60,486 nucleotides of DNA from a virus (lineage: Duplodnaviria > Caudoviricetes): the IMG/VR virus record IMGVR_UViG_3300037846_000086, positions 1 through 60,486 of that record. One strand, written 5' to 3'. Both the position numbers and the translations under genes were made by a program. The notes beneath the pieces were generated by a model. It was given only the letters and a program-made list of their open reading frames with translations, was not told the DNA's origin and made no database searches. Positions 2,647 through 16,734 of this stretch are shown piece after piece. Position 1 is the first letter of the stretch. Each line of letters starts with the position of its first letter.

Positions 2647-3993
2647 ATGACCGTACTGAGCGACAACGCCAGGATTCTGCAATTCGAAGCCGAGAACGTC
2701 CAAGGGCTGAAGGTGGTCAAGCTGTCGCCCGATCGGAACTCGGTCGTCGTCAGCGGCCCCAACGGCTGCGGAAAAAGTAGCGTGCTTGATTCCCTGGAAA
2801 TGGCGATGCTCGGCGCGAAGCACTTTTCAAAGCGGCCGATCCGCGACGGCGAGACGCACGCTCACGTTAAGATCGACATCGGCGACCTGGCCACCGAGCT
2901 ACAAGTCGAGCGGACGTTCACGCCGAACGGAAGTTACCTGACCGTCAAGACGGCTGACGGCCGGCCGGTGAAGTCGCCGCAGGATATTCTGAATTCGCTG
3001 TTCTCCGGCATTGCGTTCGACCCGCTCGAATTCATGTCCCTCAAGCCCGAACGGCAAGTCGAAGAGTTGAAGCATGTCGCCGGCCTCGACTTCAAAGACC
3101 TCGACGTTGCCCGAGACAAAGCCTACGGCGACCGCACGCTCATCAACCGGCAGGTGACGCAGGCGGAATGGGAGCTGAAGCAAATCGACCCGGCTTTCGA
3201 GGACGCGCCGGTCGAAGAGGTCAAGGCCGGCGAGCTGGTGGCCGAGCTGACGACGCGGCAGGATGTCAACGCGGCGAATGCCGAGCAGCGGACTGCGTTG
3301 CATGATCTGGAGCTGGCCGAGCAAGAGGCAGCCGACTTGGTCGCCACGGTCGTCGAGGAAGTGGCCGAGCTGCGGCGTCGGCTGGAAGAATCGGAAAATC
3401 GGCTGGCCGTGGCCCGGGCCGACCTGAAAGATTCCTGCGACAAGGCCAAGGCGCAGCTCGCCATCGTTGAGGCCCTTGAAGACGCCGACGCTGAAGAGAT
3501 CAAGCACGATCTAGCCGAAGTTGACGATCAGAATCGAAAGTACCGCCACAACGAACGCCGACGCCTGCAAGAGTCGCGGATCGCCGACCTGAAAGAACAG
3601 TCCCTGGCGCTGACGGCGCAGCTCGACGGCATCGAAGCCGAGCGGCTGGCTCGGATCGCCGCGGCGCCGTTGCCGCTGCCGGGGCTCGGCTTCGGCGATG
3701 ACGGCGTGACCTTCGACGGTATCCCGCTGGAGCAAGTCAACACGGCTTCGATAATCGAGATCAGTGTCGAGATGGGGCTGGCGATGCACCCGAAGCTGCG
3801 CGTGCTGCTCATCCGCCGCGGCAACGATCTGGACGACGAGACCTTCCCGGTGATCGCTCGGCTGGCCGCGAAGCACGATGCCCAATTCTGGATTGAGCGT
3901 ATTCGGCCGGACGGCCAAGCGGCCATCGTCATCCGTGAAGGCGAAGTGGCCGAGGTTGTGGCGGCCGTGGAAGGCGATGAGAACCCGTACTGA
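2647..3993 (+). CDS. SMC/RecN-like coiled-coil ATPase
   Basis: N-terminal Walker A GPNGCGKSS, long central coiled coil, C-terminal head half; RBS GAGGGAG. Confidence 0.8.
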   Translation: MTVLSDNARILQFEAENVQGLKVVKLSPDRNSVVVSGPNGCGKSSVLDSLEMAMLGAKHFSKRPIRDGETHAHVKIDIGDLATELQVERTFTPNGSYLTVKTADGRPVKSPQDILNSLFSGIAFDPLEFMSLKPERQVEELKHVAGLDFKDLDVARDKAYGDRTLINRQVTQAEWELKQIDPAFEDAPVEEVKAGELVAELTTRQDVNAANAEQRTALHDLELAEQEAADLVATVVEEVAELRRRLEESENRLAVARADLKDSCDKAKAQLAIVEALEDADAEEIKHDLAEVDDQNRKYRHNERRRLQESRIADLKEQSLALTAQLDGIEAERLARIAAAPLPLPGLGFGDDGVTFDGIPLEQVNTASIIEISVEMGLAMHPKLRVLLIRRGNDLDDETFPVIARLAAKHDAQFWIERIRPDGQAAIVIREGEVAEVVAAVEGDENPY

Positions 3994-4307
3994 TGGACTT
4001 ACTCACCGACCGGCAGCAGGCCATCTTCAATTTTATTGTCGGCTTCGTGCGAGCCCATGGTTACTCGCCGAGCTATCGAGACATCATGCGGGAGTTTGGA
4101 TTCGTTTCTACACAGGGCGTCGAGTGTCACCTTGTTTCCCTGGAAGTAAAGGGGGTTATTTCCAGGCCAGTAAAGGGAACCGGGAATGCCCGATCGATCG
4201 TCGTGAATCTATCGTTCCTGGAAAACTGCCCATGCTGCGGACAGAAGCTACCGCCATGCCGCGACACCGCAAAGACTGCCTCCAGCGGAAGCCCTATGGC
4301 AAGCTGA
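3993..4307 (+). CDS. LexA-type DNA-binding domain protein (no peptidase domain)
   Basis: LTDRQQAIFNFI...GYSPSYRDIMREFGF.S...V..HL..LE.KG.I matches the LexA N-terminal wHTH; TGATG coupling to the upstream gene. Confidence 0.85.
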   Translation: MDLLTDRQQAIFNFIVGFVRAHGYSPSYRDIMREFGFVSTQGVECHLVSLEVKGVISRPVKGTGNARSIVVNLSFLENCPCCGQKLPPCRDTAKTASSGSPMAS

Positions 4308-4693
4308 GTGAGCAAGACATCCTCGACATGCTGACGGACGGACGGCTATTCGTGGACGTTGAAACGGGCCAGGTGTCGGTTGCCAGCGGCCGGTTCCTGA
4401 TCCCGTTTCCGTGCAAGGGCCGCTATCTGTTCGTTCGCGTCCACGCCAACGGCTGCCGGCGTGGGATTGCGGTTCATAAGCTGGTTTGGATGAAGGTCCA
4501 CGGCTGCGTTGTGCCGGAAGGATGCGATGTGCATCATAAAGACAGGCGGCGACAGAATAATCACTACAAGAATCTGGAGGTCGAAGAGATGGGGCCGCAC
4601 CGCTCGTCTGCGGCATTGACGGGAGCCGCGGAGCGATACGGCTATCCGATCGGCTGGGACATCGAAGAGGAATTCGACCTGGCGGACTTTTGA
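4256..4693 (+). CDS. HNH endonuclease
   Basis: VHKLVW...DVHHKDRRRQNNHYKNLE motif; start codon uncertain (4232 or 4256). Confidence 0.8.
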   Translation: MPRHRKDCLQRKPYGKLSEQDILDMLTDGRLFVDVETGQVSVASGRFLIPFPCKGRYLFVRVHANGCRRGIAVHKLVWMKVHGCVVPEGCDVHHKDRRRQNNHYKNLEVEEMGPHRSSAALTGAAERYGYPIGWDIEEEFDLADF

Positions 4694-8974: not shown

Positions 8975-9151
8975 ATGGAAAGCGTAAGTGAGTGGCGGGA
9001 CTACGTTCGGACGAAAGAGCAGATCAACGCTGACCTGCGCGAACAGGCGTTGCTTGAGTCTGCCGCGTTCTCTGATGCGCGCGACATTGCCGACGTGTTC
9101 CGGGATGGCCGTTGCCACCTGATTGGAAACGATGGGCATGTCATCCTTTGA
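8975..9151 (+). CDS. 58-aa hypothetical protein
   Basis: RBS GAGG and ATG; fills the terS-terL gap. Confidence 0.45.
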   Translation: MESVSEWRDYVRTKEQINADLREQALLESAAFSDARDIADVFRDGRCHLIGNDGHVIL

Positions 9152-11822
9152 TTCCCCGCCCCCGATCGTTGCGCCGGCTGATGCGAAAGCCATCCACCTC
9201 ATCCGCTCGGCCATGGCTGCTCGGCAAATCCAGGCCGAGCGGCATCTGATCGATTTTGTACGTCAGGCGTGGCCGATCGTCGAGCCGAATACCGAGTTCG
9301 TCGAAGGCAAGCACATTAACTTAATTTGTGAACATTTAGAGGCACTGTATTTAGGTCAGATTCGTAACCTTTTAATCAACATTCCACCTCGTTGCTCAAA
9401 GAGCTTGCTGACGTGCGTGTTCTTTTTCTGCTGGGTCTGGATTCACAAGCCGTGGACCCGCTGGATGTTTGCCAGCTATGCCCAGCAGCTCAGTACGCGG
9501 GACAGCCTCAAGTGCCGGTCAATCATCACGAGCCAGTGGTATCAAGAGCAGTGGGGCGCTAAGTTCCAGCTCCGCGACGATGCGAACCTAAAGACCCGCT
9601 TCGACAATACGAGGACGGGCTTTCGCCTGGCAACCAGCGTCGAAGGAATGGGCACCGGAGAGGGTGGTACGTATCAAATTATCGATGACCCGCACAACGT
9701 CGTCGAAGGGGAAAGCGAACTGCACCGCGAAGCTGTGCTGCGCTACCTCAGTCAGTCGATGATTACGCGCAGCAACGATCCGGGCCACGCCCGGAGATGC
9801 TTGGTCATGCAACGGCTGCACCACAAGGACGCGTCGGCGTGGGCGATCGAACAGGGGTGGGAGCACCTGATGCTGCCCATGGAATACGAGCCGGAGCGGC
9901 GGTGCCAGACGTCGATCGGCTGCGACTGGCGGACACAGCCCGGTGAACTGCTCTGTCCAGGGCGGATCGGTCCGAAGGAACTGGCGGAGCTGAAGCTGGC
10001 CCTTCGCGAGTACGGCACGGCCGGCCAGCTCCAGCAACGTCCGAGCCCCAAGGGCGGATCGATCTTCAAGCGGGAGTGGTTCCGCGTGTTCCGCGTAGCT
10101 CGGCTGCCAGGCGAAGCCAAGTTGCCATCCGGCTGTTCGAAGCTGCTGAGCTTCTGTTTCGAGTTGCTCCAGCCGGACGGCTCGGTCAAGCGGATCATGG
10201 CTTATGACTGCTGGTGGTTCCAGACGTGCGATACGGCGACGAGCACGGAGCAAGAGGCGGACTATACCGTCGTCTTGACTGGGGCCGTCACGCCGGACAA
10301 CGAGCTGCTGATCTGGGAAGTGAACCGCGAGCACTTACTCGTCCCGCTTCAGTACGGCTACTTGATCGCTCAGCGCGAACGATACGACTGCCTCGACTTC
10401 CAGGCCGTCGAAGCGGCGTCGAGCGGTATTGGGTTGATCCAAACGGCTAAGATGAAAGGCACCCCATTCCGCGTACTCAAAACCAAGGGCGTCTCCAAGG
10501 TGCGGCGGGCAACGGCGATTTCTATCATGTACGAAAATGGGAACGTCTACCACCGCGGGGCGGCGCCATGGCTGACGGACTTTGAGGATGAGATATTGCA
10601 GTTTCCGCGGGGGGTACACGACGATCAATGCCTTATCGCCGGCACGATGATCGAAACGGAGTACGGCCCGAGGGCAATCGAAGCGATTCGGATCGGCGAC
10701 CTGGTCTGGACCCGGCGAGGGCTCCGCCGGGTGTCGGCGGCCGGCATGACGAGCCCGTCGGCCGAGACAATGAGGCTGACGGCCGCTGATGGCCGATCGC
10801 TCCAAGGAACCGCTGGGCATCCGGTCTGGGTCGATGGGAGTGGGTTCACGCCCCTTGACGCCGTGACTTATGGCGGTATTCTGTCGATATGGGATGGAAA
10901 AAGAACCCGTCGATCAGGAAAGAGTACGTCGTATTTCGCGGCGTTACGTTCCGCCGTTACCCCGATTCTCCGCGACGGCATCTCCGCGTTTACTTCTGGC
11001 CTCCTTTGGTTGAAAAGCAGCGCGGCGTCGAAAGCTTGCACCGGGAGGTCTGGAAGTTTCACCGAGGGCCGATCCCCAAAGGATACGAGGTTCATCACAA
11101 AGACGAAGACCCGCTCAATAATTCGATCGACAATCTCGAATGCCTCTCGATCGGAGAGCACCGGCGACTTCACGCCATGTCTGGTGCGTTTCGATCCGAG
11201 AAGCAGCTCCAGCACCTTGATGAAATTCGGCACTTGGCTGCTGAGTGGCATAGTTCCGAAGAAGGCAGGGCTTGGCACAGTGAGCACGCCAAAAAACATC
11301 AGAGGAAAAAGCAATTGGTCGAATTCGTTTGCGAGCACTGCGGCAAGTCTCAACGCAAGCTCTTGCCCGTGCTTAACAGCAGGAATCCGAAGTATTGCAA
11401 TCCAGCCTGCGGCTCGGCAGCGCGTCGCAAATCTGGCATCGACAATGAAACAAGGGCCTGTGTCGAATGTGGGTCGGACTTCGTTACGAACAAGTACAGC
11501 AAGCAAAAGGTGTGCTCGCACGTCTGCGCTGGCCATCGTGCGGCTAGAGCGAGTGTCGCATCGCGAGCCCGTCTACAATCTGACCGTTGAAGGCGAGCAC
11601 GAATACTTCGCCAACGGTATTCTGGTTCATAATTGCGACGCGGTTTCCTACGCCGGAATTTTAATTACCGAAATGGCCATGCACTCGCCCGGCGTGAAGT
11701 CGATGTCCGATGAGGAATGGGAAGCGGCTGGCAAGTCGCTGGCAGATGAGAGCGAATCGGAATGGGACTTCGGCGACGATGCGCCCGGTCCGGAGCCGGC
11801 CGGAGATTGGGCTGCCTATTGA
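9123..11822 (+). CDS. terL: terminase large subunit containing an intein
   Basis: NIPPRCSKS Walker A, IIDDPH Walker B, MQRLH, QQRP, DTA and HDDQ|CDAVSYA nuclease motifs; true start probably ATG 9132 or 9138. Confidence 0.93.
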   Translation: METMGMSSFDSPPPIVAPADAKAIHLIRSAMAARQIQAERHLIDFVRQAWPIVEPNTEFVEGKHINLICEHLEALYLGQIRNLLINIPPRCSKSLLTCVFFFCWVWIHKPWTRWMFASYAQQLSTRDSLKCRSIITSQWYQEQWGAKFQLRDDANLKTRFDNTRTGFRLATSVEGMGTGEGGTYQIIDDPHNVVEGESELHREAVLRYLSQSMITRSNDPGHARRCLVMQRLHHKDASAWAIEQGWEHLMLPMEYEPERRCQTSIGCDWRTQPGELLCPGRIGPKELAELKLALREYGTAGQLQQRPSPKGGSIFKREWFRVFRVARLPGEAKLPSGCSKLLSFCFELLQPDGSVKRIMAYDCWWFQTCDTATSTEQEADYTVVLTGAVTPDNELLIWEVNREHLLVPLQYGYLIAQRERYDCLDFQAVEAASSGIGLIQTAKMKGTPFRVLKTKGVSKVRRATAISIMYENGNVYHRGAAPWLTDFEDEILQFPRGVHDDQCLIAGTMIETEYGPRAIEAIRIGDLVWTRRGLRRVSAAGMTSPSAETMRLTAADGRSLQGTAGHPVWVDGSGFTPLDAVTYGGILSIWDGKRTRRSGKSTSYFAALRSAVTPILRDGISAFTSGLLWLKSSAASKACTGRSGSFTEGRSPKDTRFITKTKTRSIIRSTISNASRSESTGDFTPCLVRFDPRSSSSTLMKFGTWLLSGIVPKKAGLGTVSTPKNIRGKSNWSNSFASTAASLNASSCPCLTAGIRSIAIQPAARQRVANLASTMKQGPVSNVGRTSLRTSTASKRCARTSALAIVRLERVSHREPVYNLTVEGEHEYFANGILVHNCDAVSYAGILITEMAMHSPGVKSMSDEEWEAAGKSLADESESEWDFGDDAPGPEPAGDWAAY
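10855..10882 (+). promoter_or_regulatory. internal promoter within the intein driving the nested HNH (leaderless)
   Basis: TTGACG-16nt-TATTCT, with ATG 6 nt after the -10 box. Confidence 0.55.
10889..11590 (+). CDS. HNH homing endonuclease with Zn fingers, nested out of frame in the intein
   Basis: LHREVW...EVHHKDEDPLNNSIDNLECLS..EH; CEHC/YCNPAC/CVEC/CSHVC; frame +2 relative to terL. Confidence 0.9.
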   Translation: MGWKKNPSIRKEYVVFRGVTFRRYPDSPRRHLRVYFWPPLVEKQRGVESLHREVWKFHRGPIPKGYEVHHKDEDPLNNSIDNLECLSIGEHRRLHAMSGAFRSEKQLQHLDEIRHLAAEWHSSEEGRAWHSEHAKKHQRKKQLVEFVCEHCGKSQRKLLPVLNSRNPKYCNPACGSAARRKSGIDNETRACVECGSDFVTNKYSKQKVCSHVCAGHRAARASVASRARLQSDR

Positions 11823-12979: not shown

Positions 12980-13390
12980 AGCCGGCAAGCTTTCGCCGGC
13001 CGGCTCAGTGGTAGCCATACAACCTGCCTCTGGCCGCGAGCCGAAGCCCGCGTCAGGCAGCCAAGCCTGAGCAACAGGGATGGCAGGGGCAACCCCCGGT
13101 AGCGAACCGGACGACGGCGTTTACGTGCTCAACGTCTTTCGGCATCAGAGAGGTTTACCGTCAGGCTGCCATAAGGCCGGGGCGAATGGGGTACACCAAC
13201 TCCCAGGCCAAGCAGGGCCGCCGAAGCGGTCCAGCGGCGCCGAATATACGCCAGCAACACACGCCTCGTAAGAGCCGCCGGACATCGCAACTTACCGGCT
13301 TTCCCTTGACGCCGAGCCCACGGCAGGGAACACTCTTGGATAGCAGACACCCCAGGGATGGGGACACCCCGCACCGCTCGGACGCAAAAA
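12980..13390 (+). ncRNA. candidate large structured RNA upstream of the portal gene
   Basis: Dense run of short hairpins, including GNRA-capped GGG-GCAA-CCC and CTC-GTAA-GAG. Confidence 0.4.
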
Positions 13391-13392
13391 TC

Positions 13393-16300
13393 GTGGCGCC
13401 AACCGCGTCTACTGATTCCTTTCCGGCTCCCTTCGAGGAGCATACGGCCGGCTTCCAGTTCGACGAGGACTTGGCCGGCAGTACGGGGGAAATCCGTTCC
13501 GACTCGCTGAACTTCGACAGCTTCAACGAGCTGGGGAACATTCTCGGCGAGCTGATGACCAGCGGCCGGGTCAGCCGCAACCAGGGCGGAATCTCCGTTA
13601 TTCAGCAGGTCGGTGCTCTGGCCTCGACCTGGATTCACGTCTGCATCCAGTGTCGCCGCGAGGGCATTGTCGCTACGCCGCTCCGCCTGTGGCAGAACAA
13701 GGCCGACGGCACGGCCGGCGAGGAGGTCACCAACCCCGAGCACCCCTACCTTCACGTACTCGAAAACCCGAACCCGATGGACACGCGGGCGGAGTTTTGG
13801 GACCAGACGGTCAACTTCTACGACCTGACCGGCAACGCCCTTTGGCTAAAGGTCCGCGGCCAGAACAACCGCAAGGTACAAGAGTTGTGGGTGCTGCCGT
13901 CGCAATTCATCGTGCCAGTGCATACGAAGGCCAAGCTGCTGTACGGCTACGCCATGCAGACGGCCTATGGCGACGAGGTCATTATCCCGGCCGAGGACAT
14001 CGTTCATTTCAAGGCGGCTAACCCCCGCGACCGCTTCTGGGGGCTCGGCACGCTGGCGGCCGCGGCTGACTCGATGAAGGCCTTCGATATGGTCAAGGCC
14101 TCGCGGCTGGCGGCGTTCAATAACGACATCCTGGCCAGCCTCTACTTCCAATGCAAGGATTCGCTGACGCGGCCGCAGTGGATTCGCCTGATGGGGTTGT
14201 TGCGCGAGCGCTACGCCGGCTACACGAAGGCCGGGCGGCCGTTGCTGCTGGAGAATGGGCTCGATGTCAAGCGGGTCAATCCAACGCCGAAGGAGATGGA
14301 GTTCCGCGGCTCGGCCGAAGATTTACGGGACGAGATTTGCGCCATCTTCCGCGTGCCGCCGCTGTTGGCGATGGTCGTCAAGAATGCGAACAACAGCAAC
14401 ACAGCCAGCCAGGAACGTGTTTGGGAGAAGTACACGGTTGCACCGCTGTGCGTTCGCTTCCAAGAGCGGATCAACAAAGACCTGACGCCCGAGTTCGGCC
14501 CCAACCTGGAAGCCGAGTTCGAGAGCCCGGTCCAGCAGGACAAGGTCGAGCAGTCGAAGATCGATGCCCAGGACATCATCAGCGGCAAGTCAACGGCCAA
14601 CGAAATCCGGGCCCGCGATGGGCTGGACACGGTGCCCTACGGCGACGGGCCGCCGTGGTGGTACCAGCTTCGCGCCCAGATGCTCAACTCGCAGGCCAAG
14701 ATTGAGCAAGCCAAAGTCGATCAACTCAAGCTCCAGCAGCAACAAGTCGTCGAGGTTCAAGACCCGACAGACGGAAATGGCGAGCAGACGCCTGGCGGCC
14801 CCGATGCCAATGTATCCGGCGGCGAGGACGCCAACGCCGACACGGCCTGGTCCGATGCCCAAGACGCCCGATCGGTCCCACGAAACACTGCATCCCGAAA
14901 CGCTGTGCGGGCGGAAGGGCCGGCACTCGAAATAACCGTCGAGTGCCGGCCGCCGTCTGCTGCCAGGGCCTTGTTGATCCGCACGGTGAGCAACGACTAC
15001 GCCGAGCTGGAAGACGAGACGGTCCCAACGCTACGCCGGTACTTCGTAGCGCAGAAGCGGCGCATCCTGGCCAATTTGGAAACGGCCTTCGGCGGCTTGA
15101 TTCCGCCGGGCTCTGATGCCGAAGTGGACGGCACGCGACTGAGCCTGTTCGAACGACGCAAGGCCTACTTTGTCACGGCCGGCGGAGTCATCTATGCCCG
15201 GCTGTTTCCCGACGGCGAGACGCTGCGCGAAGTCGGCAACGAGGAAGTGGCTCGACTCGGTTCGTTCGTCGCGGTGCCTGACTGCCGCTACCACGACGGC
15301 GAGTGGGCCGAGATCGTCGTTCGCACGCTGGATGCCAAACACGAGGATCAGCTTGACGACTGGCTGCGAGCGGCTGACGCCTTGGCCGAGTCGATGCTGC
15401 CAAAGCTCCGCAAGGCCATGCAGAAGGGCGGCGGCATGCAGTACAGCGCACTGGGCACGAGCAAGACGTTCGACCTCAACGATCCGCTGGCCGAAGAGTG
15501 GCTACGCGGCAAGGACCGCGACTACTGGAACGACACAGTTGGCGCCACGACGAAAAAGCTGCTGAGCGAAAAGCTGGCCAAGGTGATGGAGGAAGGGCCG
15601 AGTTGGAAAAAGCTGACGGCTGCGGTCAATGAAGTGATGGACGGCCGGATCAAAAGCTCGGCCATGACCATTGCTCGTACAGAGACACTGGGCGCATATT
15701 CGAGTGCCGCCGACATCGTGCGAACTGATCTTGGCGTCAACGAGAAAGAATGGCTATCGACGCTTGACGCTCGCACGCGAACGACGCATGCGATGGCGCA
15801 TGGGCAGAAGGTGGCGCAAAACGGGCTCTTTCATGTTGGCGACTCCAATCTACGATACCCTGGCGACCCGGCCGGCAGTGCGCGAGAGATTGTAAATTGC
15901 CGCTGCACTGCCGTTTCAATCATGGAATCCGTCGGCAGTCTTGGCCCGGCGCCCGGCCCTGGCCCGCAACCAGCGATCACGGAAAAGCCGAAGAAGAAGC
16001 CGGCGACAAAGAAGCCGAAGAAAGAACCAAAGCCCGCTAAGGAACCAAAACAGAAGCCATCCGAGCCGGAGCAGCCAAAGGGATTCGAGATTACTTACTC
16101 TGGGAACACGTCAGAGTCTTTCAGGGGTGAAGTTGCGTCGGCGGCAGACTCGATACCAAAATCGGTGCGAGATCGTGTTGAGGGCAAGTATGGCGCCAGG
16201 ATCGTAACGAACGAGCTACTTACCAATCACTTCACCGATCTGAAAGGCGTATGCCCGAACGGATGGCCACCTGGCTCGACATGGGATGAGGCCGAAGGCT

Positions 16301-16734
16301 TGTTCCAACATAGATCGAAAACGATCTTCTGTTCCGAGTTTACGCAGGCTAGTGGTCTCAGGAGCAAGAGCTATCGCGTCTCGGGTGTCATCAGGCACGA
16401 GTACGGGCATGCCTTTGACACGTCAGGAACCATGGACGTCAGTTTCATAAGCGGCGGAAGCTTTTCTAGCCGCCAGGCGTTTAAGGATGCTTATTCGGCG
16501 GACCTGAACGCACTGAAATCCCTGGCACTAGAAGGCGATGCCGTGGCCAAGGATGCCGTCAAGCACCTGGATTATTACCTTCAGCAGGGTTATGCTGGAC
16601 GCGATGAGGCTTTCGCCGAAGGGTTTGCAATTACCAACGGAGGGGGCGGAGGCAGTATCGAAGAGACAAGGCACTTCCGAAGGTTCTTTCCTACGGTGCT
16701 CAGTACGATTGAAGGGATTGTCAAGGCGCTATAA
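13393..16734 (+). CDS. HK97-family portal fused to MuF (SPP1 gp7-like) minor head domain and a C-terminal zincin metallopeptidase
   Basis: Portal motifs LTGNALW, DIVHFK, GLGTL, EICAIFRVPP, TANEIRA; MuF IARTET...KEWLST.DARTR.TH...YPGDP...NCRC; HEYGH...DEAFAE; GTG start preferred over ATG 13186. Confidence 0.9.
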   Translation: MAPTASTDSFPAPFEEHTAGFQFDEDLAGSTGEIRSDSLNFDSFNELGNILGELMTSGRVSRNQGGISVIQQVGALASTWIHVCIQCRREGIVATPLRLWQNKADGTAGEEVTNPEHPYLHVLENPNPMDTRAEFWDQTVNFYDLTGNALWLKVRGQNNRKVQELWVLPSQFIVPVHTKAKLLYGYAMQTAYGDEVIIPAEDIVHFKAANPRDRFWGLGTLAAAADSMKAFDMVKASRLAAFNNDILASLYFQCKDSLTRPQWIRLMGLLRERYAGYTKAGRPLLLENGLDVKRVNPTPKEMEFRGSAEDLRDEICAIFRVPPLLAMVVKNANNSNTASQERVWEKYTVAPLCVRFQERINKDLTPEFGPNLEAEFESPVQQDKVEQSKIDAQDIISGKSTANEIRARDGLDTVPYGDGPPWWYQLRAQMLNSQAKIEQAKVDQLKLQQQQVVEVQDPTDGNGEQTPGGPDANVSGGEDANADTAWSDAQDARSVPRNTASRNAVRAEGPALEITVECRPPSAARALLIRTVSNDYAELEDETVPTLRRYFVAQKRRILANLETAFGGLIPPGSDAEVDGTRLSLFERRKAYFVTAGGVIYARLFPDGETLREVGNEEVARLGSFVAVPDCRYHDGEWAEIVVRTLDAKHEDQLDDWLRAADALAESMLPKLRKAMQKGGGMQYSALGTSKTFDLNDPLAEEWLRGKDRDYWNDTVGATTKKLLSEKLAKVMEEGPSWKKLTAAVNEVMDGRIKSSAMTIARTETLGAYSSAADIVRTDLGVNEKEWLSTLDARTRTTHAMAHGQKVAQNGLFHVGDSNLRYPGDPAGSAREIVNCRCTAVSIMESVGSLGPAPGPGPQPAITEKPKKKPATKKPKKEPKPAKEPKQKPSEPEQPKGFEITYSGNTSESFRGEVASAADSIPKSVRDRVEGKYGARIVTNELLTNHFTDLKGVCPNGWPPGSTWDEAEGLFQHRSKTIFCSEFTQASGLRSKSYRVSGVIRHEYGHAFDTSGTMDVSFISGGSFSSRQAFKDAYSADLNALKSLALEGDAVAKDAVKHLDYYLQQGYAGRDEAFAEGFAITNGGGGGSIEETRHFRRFFPTVLSTIEGIVKAL

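Follow-up and report, generated by a model that had tools for sequence, protein, structure and literature searches.

The usual picture of an intein is that of a splicing domain and a homing endonuclease fused in a single reading frame, and how these two parts joined, like how split inteins arose, is a long-standing question. We analysed a tailed-virus terminase gene in which an endonuclease gene appears to lie inside an intein in another reading frame. The sequence is the IMG/VR virus record IMGVR_UViG_3300037846_000086 (Duplodnaviria; Caudoviricetes), studied over its positions 1 to 60,486; this whole stretch is called the window below. On its plus strand, the gene for the large terminase subunit (TerL, gene terL) carries a predicted intein at the nuclease motif, and an HNH-class endonuclease is encoded out of frame within the DNA of that intein. 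This arrangement corresponds to the predicted intermediate stage, after a free-standing endonuclease gene has entered an intein. The features of the locus are listed here; lengths are given in amino acids (aa), ORF stands for open reading frame, host frame for the frame of TerL, and pLDDT for the AlphaFold2 score called predicted local distance difference test.

9123-11822, plus strand: TerL precursor from the ORF list, 899 aa with the stop included, made up of N-extein, intein and C-extein
9123-10628, plus strand: TerL N-extein, 502 aa, recognised from the ORF and its relatives, with the nuclease motif H-D-D-Q as its last residues
10629-11633, plus strand: predicted class 1 intein whose host-frame length is 335 aa, with Cys1, T-x-x-H and a terminal H-N followed by Cys+1
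10629-10901, plus strand: N-terminal splicing (Hint) part, intein residues 1-91, modelled as beta strands with pLDDT 80-96 per block
10856-10858, plus strand: TGA stop in the HNH frame, 10 codons 5' of the HNH ATG, which bars read-in from upstream
10889-11590, plus strand: ORF for a predicted HNH_3/double zinc-ribbon endonuclease, 233 aa plus stop, ATG start, frame -1 relative to TerL
10902-11510, plus strand: host-frame linker, intein residues 92-294, stop-free, without a family match and predicted to be unstructured
11511-11633, plus strand: C-terminal splicing part, intein residues 295-335, pLDDT 83-94 in its last four blocks
11634-11822, plus strand: TerL C-extein, from Cys+1 through the stop codon, as read from the ORF and its sequence

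The first-pass annotation of this DNA had proposed that a complete class 1 intein splits the TerL nuclease motif, and its borders, block B and a Hint_2 match all confirmed this. Sequence and alignment placed the borders at HDDQ/C (10629) and HN/C (final intein base 11633). The cysteine at 10629-10631 is intein position 1 and was invariant in 16 of 16 aligned inteins; in the same intein alignment (A2), T61 of block B was nearly invariant and H64 invariant, and the V-Y and the terminal N of the C-terminal splicing part were conserved. The Pfam model Hint_2 (cut-off 28.4 bits) matched the TerL translation with 30.8 bits and the intein with 32.5 bits, covering intein residues 1-49, and in both translations the Hint_2 and Intein_splicing matches were confined to the two ends of the intein. 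Between these ends, the Pfam scan of the host frame found no endonuclease family and no HNH match. The AlphaFold2 model of the host-frame intein agreed with this division, with pLDDT 80-96 for residues 1-91, 83-94 in the final four blocks of 10 residues (about 301-335) and below 50 over residues 92-294, and all of the confident ends were beta strands. The absence of an endonuclease motif from the in-frame middle, which had also been claimed, was thus borne out. From these sequence features and the model, the N- and C-terminal parts are predicted to form a Hint fold, and the insert is assigned to the class 1 inteins. The window TerL itself gave a weak Terminase_6C match (18.7 bits, under the cut-off of 22.6). 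Unlike a fractured gene with a split intein, the window holds one continuous host ORF of 899 aa.

The HNH ORF is offset from the TerL frame by 2 nucleotides (frame -1/+2). Its translation matched HNH_3 (PF13392) with an E-value of 1e-16 (60.7 bits, cut-off 24.8), and with a Pfam threshold of E <= 0.1 the matches in this frame were HNH_3 and zinc-ribbon models only, Endonuclease_7 being absent. The open span of the HNH frame begins at 10859, and its TGA stop (11588-11590) falls in intein codons 320-321 of 335, within the conserved C-terminal block. The first-pass annotation had located the out-of-frame HNH correctly, with both frames open and the HNH stop inside the C-terminal block. It had also described four CxxC-type cysteine pairs; the four pairs were present, of which two are CxxC and two are CxxxC. 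Across 28 HNH sequences, the first zinc-ribbon cysteines were invariant, as were H69, H70, N82 and H91, which, going by the HNH motif, we take to be the catalytic residues. The HNH-frame product was modelled by AlphaFold2 with a mean pLDDT of 93.7. The closest structure to the N-terminal 100 residues of this model was I-HmuI, with a Z-score of 6.9 and a root-mean-square deviation of 3.0 over 78 residues (runner-up Z-score, 4.4), in an all-against-representatives structural search whose tool flags Z-scores below 8 as possibly a mere common arrangement. A sequence search of the PDB with HNH returned nothing meaningful. In the protein database, 237 HNH homologues were found, with a best identity to the window of 51% among the matches listed; the 120 of the 237 that were listed were 184-301 aa long, mostly 208-230 aa, and included Streptomyces and Xanthobacter proteins. 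HNH is thus far a putative nuclease, and its site specificity a prediction.

The coexistence of two open frames exceeded chance. In the window, the host frame contained no stop across the 233 HNH codons. When HNH was recoded synonymously with the codon usage of the window, the host frame acquired a mean of 4.4 stops and stayed free of them with P = 0.003; when the order of the HNH codons was shuffled, the mean was 3.0 stops and P = 0.023 (20,000 trials for each randomisation). In the +1 frame of the other long ORFs of the window, approximately 4-10 stops occurred for every 233 codons.

A further open frame lies on the opposite strand:

10868-11536, minus strand: antisense open frame, 222 aa, without a Pfam match, in register with the HNH codons

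This frame was rejected as a gene because it had no family match and kept the register of the HNH codons. We regard it as a by-product, since the HNH ORF lacks the three sense codons whose complements are stops. The family search of the frames, which had been suggested earlier as a check, placed HNH_3 in the -1 frame, Hint models at the two host-frame ends and no family in the antisense frame.

Comparison of related loci revealed which of the two frames is constrained. The differences clustered at HNH codon position 3, with 46, 37 and 78 differences at positions 1, 2 and 3 between loci L006 and L011, and 95, 84 and 144 between the window and locus L003. Identity was higher in the HNH frame than in the host frame of the same DNA in all 12 pairs compared (for example, 0.70 against 0.54, and 0.45 against 0.27). 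The synonymous share of the differing sites was 35-55% in the HNH frame and 14-22% in the host frame in 11 of the 12 pairs; the twelfth pair, which had 14 differences, was tied. These patterns show purifying selection on HNH, with the host frame apparently selected only against stops. A stop there would cut short a packaging enzyme on which the phage depends, which would explain why the host frame is kept free of stops. The HNH frame was intact in all 16 clusters of nested loci described below. Purifying selection on the HNH frame only had been predicted in the first-pass annotation, and the identity and synonymous-site comparisons agree with it. Its central proposal, that an endonuclease gene of free-standing type overprints the intein while the host frame is kept merely stop-free and splicing discards the filler, is likewise supported by the comparative data.

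To place the window locus among its relatives, viral contigs were scanned for homologues of HNH, which yielded 41 loci. In 33 of these, HNH lay out of frame inside a long ORF (nested loci); the HNH ORF had approximately 180-250 codons and the host ORF 322-1244 codons, some of them clipped by contig ends. The nested loci formed 16 clusters at 90% HNH identity and 14 at 50%. The frame relation was that of the window in 31 of the 33, the other relation being found in L034 and L035. Across the 31 loci, the host frame had no stops and the third frame had 12-35, and in the eight loci where HNH was not nested the equivalent frame had 6-14. When the intein borders of the window were transferred by alignment to 15 representative host ORFs, Cys1 and Cys+1 were present in all 16 mapped inteins (the window included) and the terminal Asn in 15, with Gln in L014. 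The mapped inteins were 284-347 aa long, and all of them lay in the same terminase nuclease motif, within 1-2 residues.

Twenty host ORFs were scanned against Pfam at E <= 1e-5. Hint or intein models were matched by 18 of the 20; L023 and the phage TJE1 matched terminase models only, and the fragment L041 had no match. A terminase family was matched in 13 of the 20 (Terminase_3/3C, GpA_ATPase, Terminase_6N or T7-type RNaseH-like), so the nested layout spans at least four Pfam terminase families. It also occurs in four isolates, namely Tetrasphaera phage TJE1, Clostridium phage phiCDHM19, Acinetobacter phage Highwayman and Rhodobacteraceae phage LS06-2018-MD07, in whose records the region is annotated as terL alone and the nuclease gene is missing. 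Because the layout recurs in this way, it is neither a sequencing error nor an accident. Moreover, the isolates presumably package their DNA, and a functional TerL should therefore come from the nested layout.

Some of the host ORFs were long. In L006 (521-3790), terL carries two inteins. The first of them lies near the N-terminus and is of the canonical kind, its LAGLIDADG being in frame; the second, at the nuclease motif, contains the out-of-frame HNH. L029, L033 and L036 likewise had long host ORFs, and those of L029 and L036 contained a second Hint region.

In the HNH frame, the earliest start codon was ATG in 21 of the 22 loci examined, and in the remaining one TTG followed by ATG two codons later. 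Among the four isolates, it was ATG in two and GTG in two. The gap between the upstream stop and the HNH start was 0-17 codons, and in L003 the ATG directly follows the stop. The kept start codon and the close upstream stop favour independent initiation over a frameshift fusion. A promoter-like site was found just before the HNH start of the window:

10855-10882, plus strand: sigma-70-like promoter match, 9 of 12 positions (TTGACG, 16 nucleotides, TATTCT), with the -10 element ending 6 nucleotides before the HNH ATG

Its spacing would put the transcript start at about the A of the HNH ATG. Under strict rules, 2 of 19 loci had a site in a similar position (0.13 expected), and under relaxed rules 6 of 19 did (0.55 expected). 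The positional count of TANNNT 5' of the HNH ATG was weak, with at most 4 of 17 loci at any single offset. We treat the promoter-like site as a lead only, because its -35 element coincides in part with conserved codons of the intein and because the loci are not independent of one another. The first-pass annotation had stated that the arrangement decouples nuclease expression from terminase expression; as the promoter-like site is the sole evidence bearing on this, we retain it as a conjecture and do not support it as stated.

The distribution of the insertion was sporadic. Relatives of the window TerL N-extein were encoded at 76 viral loci, at 30-48% identity. In 56 of these, the alignment reached the insertion point, and the other 20, whose match ended before the site, were excluded. 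None of the 56 carried an intein there, and the sequence at the site was H-D-D-Q-V-D or a close variant.

The HNH family also occurs in other arrangements, as seen when six of the eight non-nested loci (L031 and L032 were excluded as near-duplicates by coordinates) and three isolates were re-examined. A split state, in which the N-terminal intein part lies 5' of HNH, the C-terminal part lies 3' and the host frame is broken, was found in L013, L040, L042, Lactobacillus phage CL2 and Vibrio phage 1.238.A. For Vibrio phage 1.238.A, tblastn found the C-terminal intein part only, and the N-terminal part was read by eye at the end of the upstream terL ORF. In L028, terL contains a contiguous mini-intein and the HNH gene lies directly 3' of terL, and in L030, terL has no intein and a closely related HNH lies just 3'. 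The L028 and L030 TerL proteins were 93% identical over 463 aligned residues and nearly identical up to the site; the difference consisted of a mini-intein of approximately 130 aa, situated at the nuclease motif, together with a few flanking residues. Acinetobacter phage BP10 has a free-standing HNH 5' of terS. L043 gave no interpretable context, and none of its neighbours had a Pfam match.

In the HNH tree, L013, L042 and L044 (CL2) formed one clade (support 100/98), the split locus L040 paired with the nested L034, which has the other frame relation (95/80), and L028, L030 and L031 formed another clade (100/99), in which the L028 and L030 genes were sister rows on short branches; the deep branches were unresolved. 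We read the tree as a sign that transitions between the states, in whichever direction, occurred more than once.

Some of these loci merit description in their own right. L028 (1045-3519) and L030 (1478-3588) make up a natural pair of occupied and empty sites. CL2 (L044, KR905067.1, 1670-2714) is a cultured phage that seems to have a terL with a split intein: its annotated 'large subunit terminase' (506-1954) stops within the N-terminal intein part, the HNH gene (1967-2590) comes next, and the C-terminal intein part (approximately 2613-2714) follows unannotated in another frame, directly before the portal gene. Vibrio phage 1.238.A (L126, NC_055735.1, 2384-3374) is N4-like; its terL is broken by the same HNH family, the HNH is unannotated, and a separate ORF called 'hedgehog/hint domain protein' holds the C-terminal intein part and the C-extein. 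In L040, a second and different HNH_3 gene with a NUMOD4 motif (3679-4215) is found in the interval from the fractured terL to the portal gene. P0121, a database protein of 796 aa, runs from the TerL N-extein through the N-terminal intein part straight into HNH and ends at the HNH stop, without a C-terminal splicing part; it may be a fused form, a copy with a frameshift, or an error.

We consider it highly probable that the window locus is a composite selfish element lodged in the terL nuclease motif. A free-standing HNH that targeted the conserved DNA of this motif would have settled in the endonuclease slot of an intein at the same site. In the host frame, the element would be a class 1 intein with an N-terminal part of approximately 91 aa and a C-terminal part of approximately 41 aa, separated by approximately 200 aa of unstructured filler. 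Protein splicing would remove the whole 335-aa insert and restore TerL, which would make the insertion harmless. That splicing takes place is suggested by the essential role of TerL and by the isolate phages with the same layout. HNH, with its I-HmuI-like N-terminal half and two C-terminal zinc ribbons, would be read in the -1 frame from the ATG at 10889 and would supply mobility, presumably by cutting or nicking an intein-less terL near H-D-D-Q/V-D upon co-infection, after which the intein would be copied by repair along with the nuclease gene. Were a stop to arise in the host frame, the phage would either die or need a split intein, and both contiguous and split outcomes are seen among the relatives.

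A more far-reaching version is possible, and we hold it only tentatively and with considerable doubt. Here, one lineage of HNH_3/zinc-ribbon endonucleases and the terminase intein would be a single system caught at every stage of invading and then breaking its host gene. The states would be HNH free beside an intein-less terL, free beside a terL with a mini-intein against a near-identical background, nested out of frame in contiguous inteins of at least four terminase families, and placed between split halves; approximately 200 codons of an essential gene would be selected only to stay stop-free, and HNH would be expressed, as a leaderless mRNA beginning with its ATG, from a promoter embedded in codons of the N-terminal intein part.

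Several points weigh against the composite-element explanation. A Foldseek search with the HNH model found nothing at E <= 0.001 (E 0.2), and the I-HmuI match, with its Z-score below 8, may reflect a common arrangement only. No Shine-Dalgarno sequence recurred consistently 5' of the HNH start across the loci, and the promoter-like site fits the consensus weakly; that HNH is translated separately, perhaps on a leaderless mRNA from an internal promoter, is what we infer from the start codons and upstream stops. Splicing across a linker of approximately 200 aa is an assumption that we draw from the essential TerL and the isolates of the same layout. No relative of the window TerL above 48% identity was found among the 76 viral loci, so recent homing of the window copy cannot be shown. 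Finally, the window copy could have been inactivated recently without leaving a visible trace in the sequence.

Other explanations of the out-of-frame layout were weighed against the same data. Two compensating indels might disguise an ordinary in-frame HNH intein, which the first-pass annotation had named as a finding that would overturn its proposal. The frame does change near both domain borders (10860-10890 and 11535-11590), where such errors would fall, and P0121 reads the TerL N-extein and N-terminal intein part directly into HNH. Such an artefact is nevertheless scarcely conceivable, since it would have to recur in 33 of 41 independent viral loci, 16 clusters and four isolates; in addition, a stop closes the HNH frame of the window 10 codons before the ATG, and a start codon is kept at the head of the HNH frame. 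The sizes of the homologues point the same way: 237 matches to HNH were of free-standing size and a single one exceeded 408 aa, although the search for longer forms is weak evidence. A programmed -1 ribosomal frameshift, which would yield a fusion of the TerL N-extein, the N-terminal intein part and HNH, would fit the -1 frame of HNH in 31 of 33 nested loci, the lack of a consistent ribosome-binding site before the ATG, and the existence of a fused reading in P0121. We judge it highly unlikely, because a stop closes the HNH frame 0-17 codons before the start, no slippery heptamer was seen by eye between this stop and the ATG in the window, a frameshift product would have no need of the conserved start codon, and L034 and L035 use the other frame relation.

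The two remaining alternatives concern the role of HNH. Homing endonuclease genes commonly decay once fixed, as is generally known and restated in preprints, and the nested HNH could be a decaying relic in a region preserved only by the need for an open TerL frame; the second zinc ribbon is indeed missing from the nested L025, L033, L034 and L036. There is little probability in this account, given that the HNH frame was intact in 16 of 16 clusters, that H69, H70, N82, H91 and the first-ribbon cysteines were invariant, and that substitutions were biased towards synonymous ones in the HNH frame. Selection on the host frame alone would also not hold a second frame open for approximately 215 codons, as the 12-35 stops in the third frame illustrate. 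Alternatively, HNH could be an accessory nuclease of the terminase that serves the phage, in cos cleavage or packaging, and is not selfish. Terminase-adjacent HNH proteins have been discussed as packaging factors (in passages of PMC3592412 and PMC11855218), and all homologues whose context was examined, save L043, lay in or beside terminase genes. We find a role of this kind improbable to a similar extent, because the distribution is sporadic, with the element in 0 of 56 TerL relatives, because terL with and without an intein occurs in near-identical backgrounds (L028 and L030), and because the family is HNH_3 with an I-HmuI-like N-terminal half. The proximity to terminase genes also has another explanation, as free-standing homing endonuclease genes typically adjoin their target gene.

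Elsewhere in the window, there is a second HNH_3 gene (3878-4693, plus strand, 271 aa), in which residues 198-235 matched the family (E-value 4.8e-09). Its relationship to the nested HNH is no more than distant (45% identity over 57 residues), and it lies just 3' of an AAA_23/SMC_N-like ATPase ORF (2647-3993). Downstream of terL, a 1182-aa ORF (13186-16734, plus strand) fuses a Phage_portal domain (residues 151-478) to a Mu F-like domain (795-909) and continues for approximately 270 more C-terminal residues, which have no Pfam match and contain an H-E-x-x-H-type motif.

The novelty implied by the first-pass annotation did not hold, since inteins with a homing endonuclease in a separate frame are already in print. 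Gosselin, Arsenault and Gogarten (bioRxiv 10.1101/2025.01.02.630785) describe actinophage inteins whose endonucleases are encoded in another frame, one of them an endonuclease VII-like gene in 'frame 3' of the intein, with TerL among the hosts; they call such architectures rare and attribute their origin to invasion by free-standing endonuclease genes. As in the window, the endonuclease is on the same strand, in the endonuclease slot of the intein and in another frame, and the host-frame segment has no recognisable predicted structure. The nuclease differs: theirs has an InterPro endonuclease VII signature and a match to T4 endonuclease VII over residues 1-67, whereas that of the window has HNH_3 and zinc ribbons. 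As HNH_3 was matched without Endonuclease_7, the architecture is common to both and the nuclease family is not. Their survey covered actinophages from PhagesDB only, whereas the layout described here was found in 16 clusters and in phages of Clostridium, Acinetobacter, Rhodobacteraceae and Tetrasphaera.

Phillips, DeSimone and Gogarten (bioRxiv 10.64898/2026.09.14.751524) report an out-of-frame LAGLIDADG endonuclease with frame-specific selection in a cyanobacterial dnaX intein, and trace the idea to Gorbalenya 1998, 'Non-canonical inteins'. The window resembles this case in its overlapping ORFs, purifying selection on the endonuclease frame, relaxed host frame and sporadic distribution, and differs in having an HNH in a phage terminase gene instead of a LAGLIDADG in a bacterial replication gene. 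Dassa et al. 2009 (PMC2677866) described fractured genes with split inteins around free-standing GIY-YIG and Vsr-like genes, one locus being a terminase, and predicted that HNH enzymes could do likewise. The endonuclease between the intein parts and the overlap of its ORF with the downstream part are shared with the window, and L013, L040, L042, CL2 and Vibrio phage 1.238.A are exactly of this kind; the systems of Dassa et al. are split, whereas the host frame of the window is continuous and its intein contiguous and presumably cis-splicing. Arsenault et al. 2025 (PMC11855218) described the ShiLan-domain insertion in a DNA methylase gene of a mycobacteriophage, where an HNH likewise lies in an alternative frame of a stop-free host ORF and raises the same question of translation, for which leaderless initiation was proposed. 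That insertion has no flanking splicing domains and its filler stays in the protein, whereas a complete intein would remove the filler in the window.

Two further systems serve as reference points. I-HmuI of Bacillus phage SPO1 (PDB 1u3e) is an HNH-class nicking homing enzyme, and its homing role in a phage would be alike; it belongs to a group I intron, has different C-terminal DNA-binding modules and shares 19% identity, whereas the window HNH belongs to an intein and carries two zinc ribbons. In the canonical in-frame HNH intein (Dalgaard et al. 1997, via the preprint), HNH is in the splicing frame, whereas that of the window is off by one frame. The passages of Kelley et al. 2016 (PMC5050341) make no mention of an out-of-frame layout. 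In the literature searched, supplementary tables excepted, no report was found of an HNH_3-type out-of-frame endonuclease in a terminase intein; within the same bounds, the nested role of the HNH_3/zinc-ribbon family, the breadth of the layout over phages and terminases, and the four states in one family were not found in print. Isolates exist for the nested (TJE1, phiCDHM19 and Highwayman), split (CL2 and Vibrio phage 1.238.A) and free (BP10) states, which makes the model testable at the bench. There is also a point for annotation, as the nuclease gene is unannotated in the four nested isolates and the C-terminal piece of terL in CL2. The architecture itself is known, and our finding is a different nuclease family within this recently described kind of intein.

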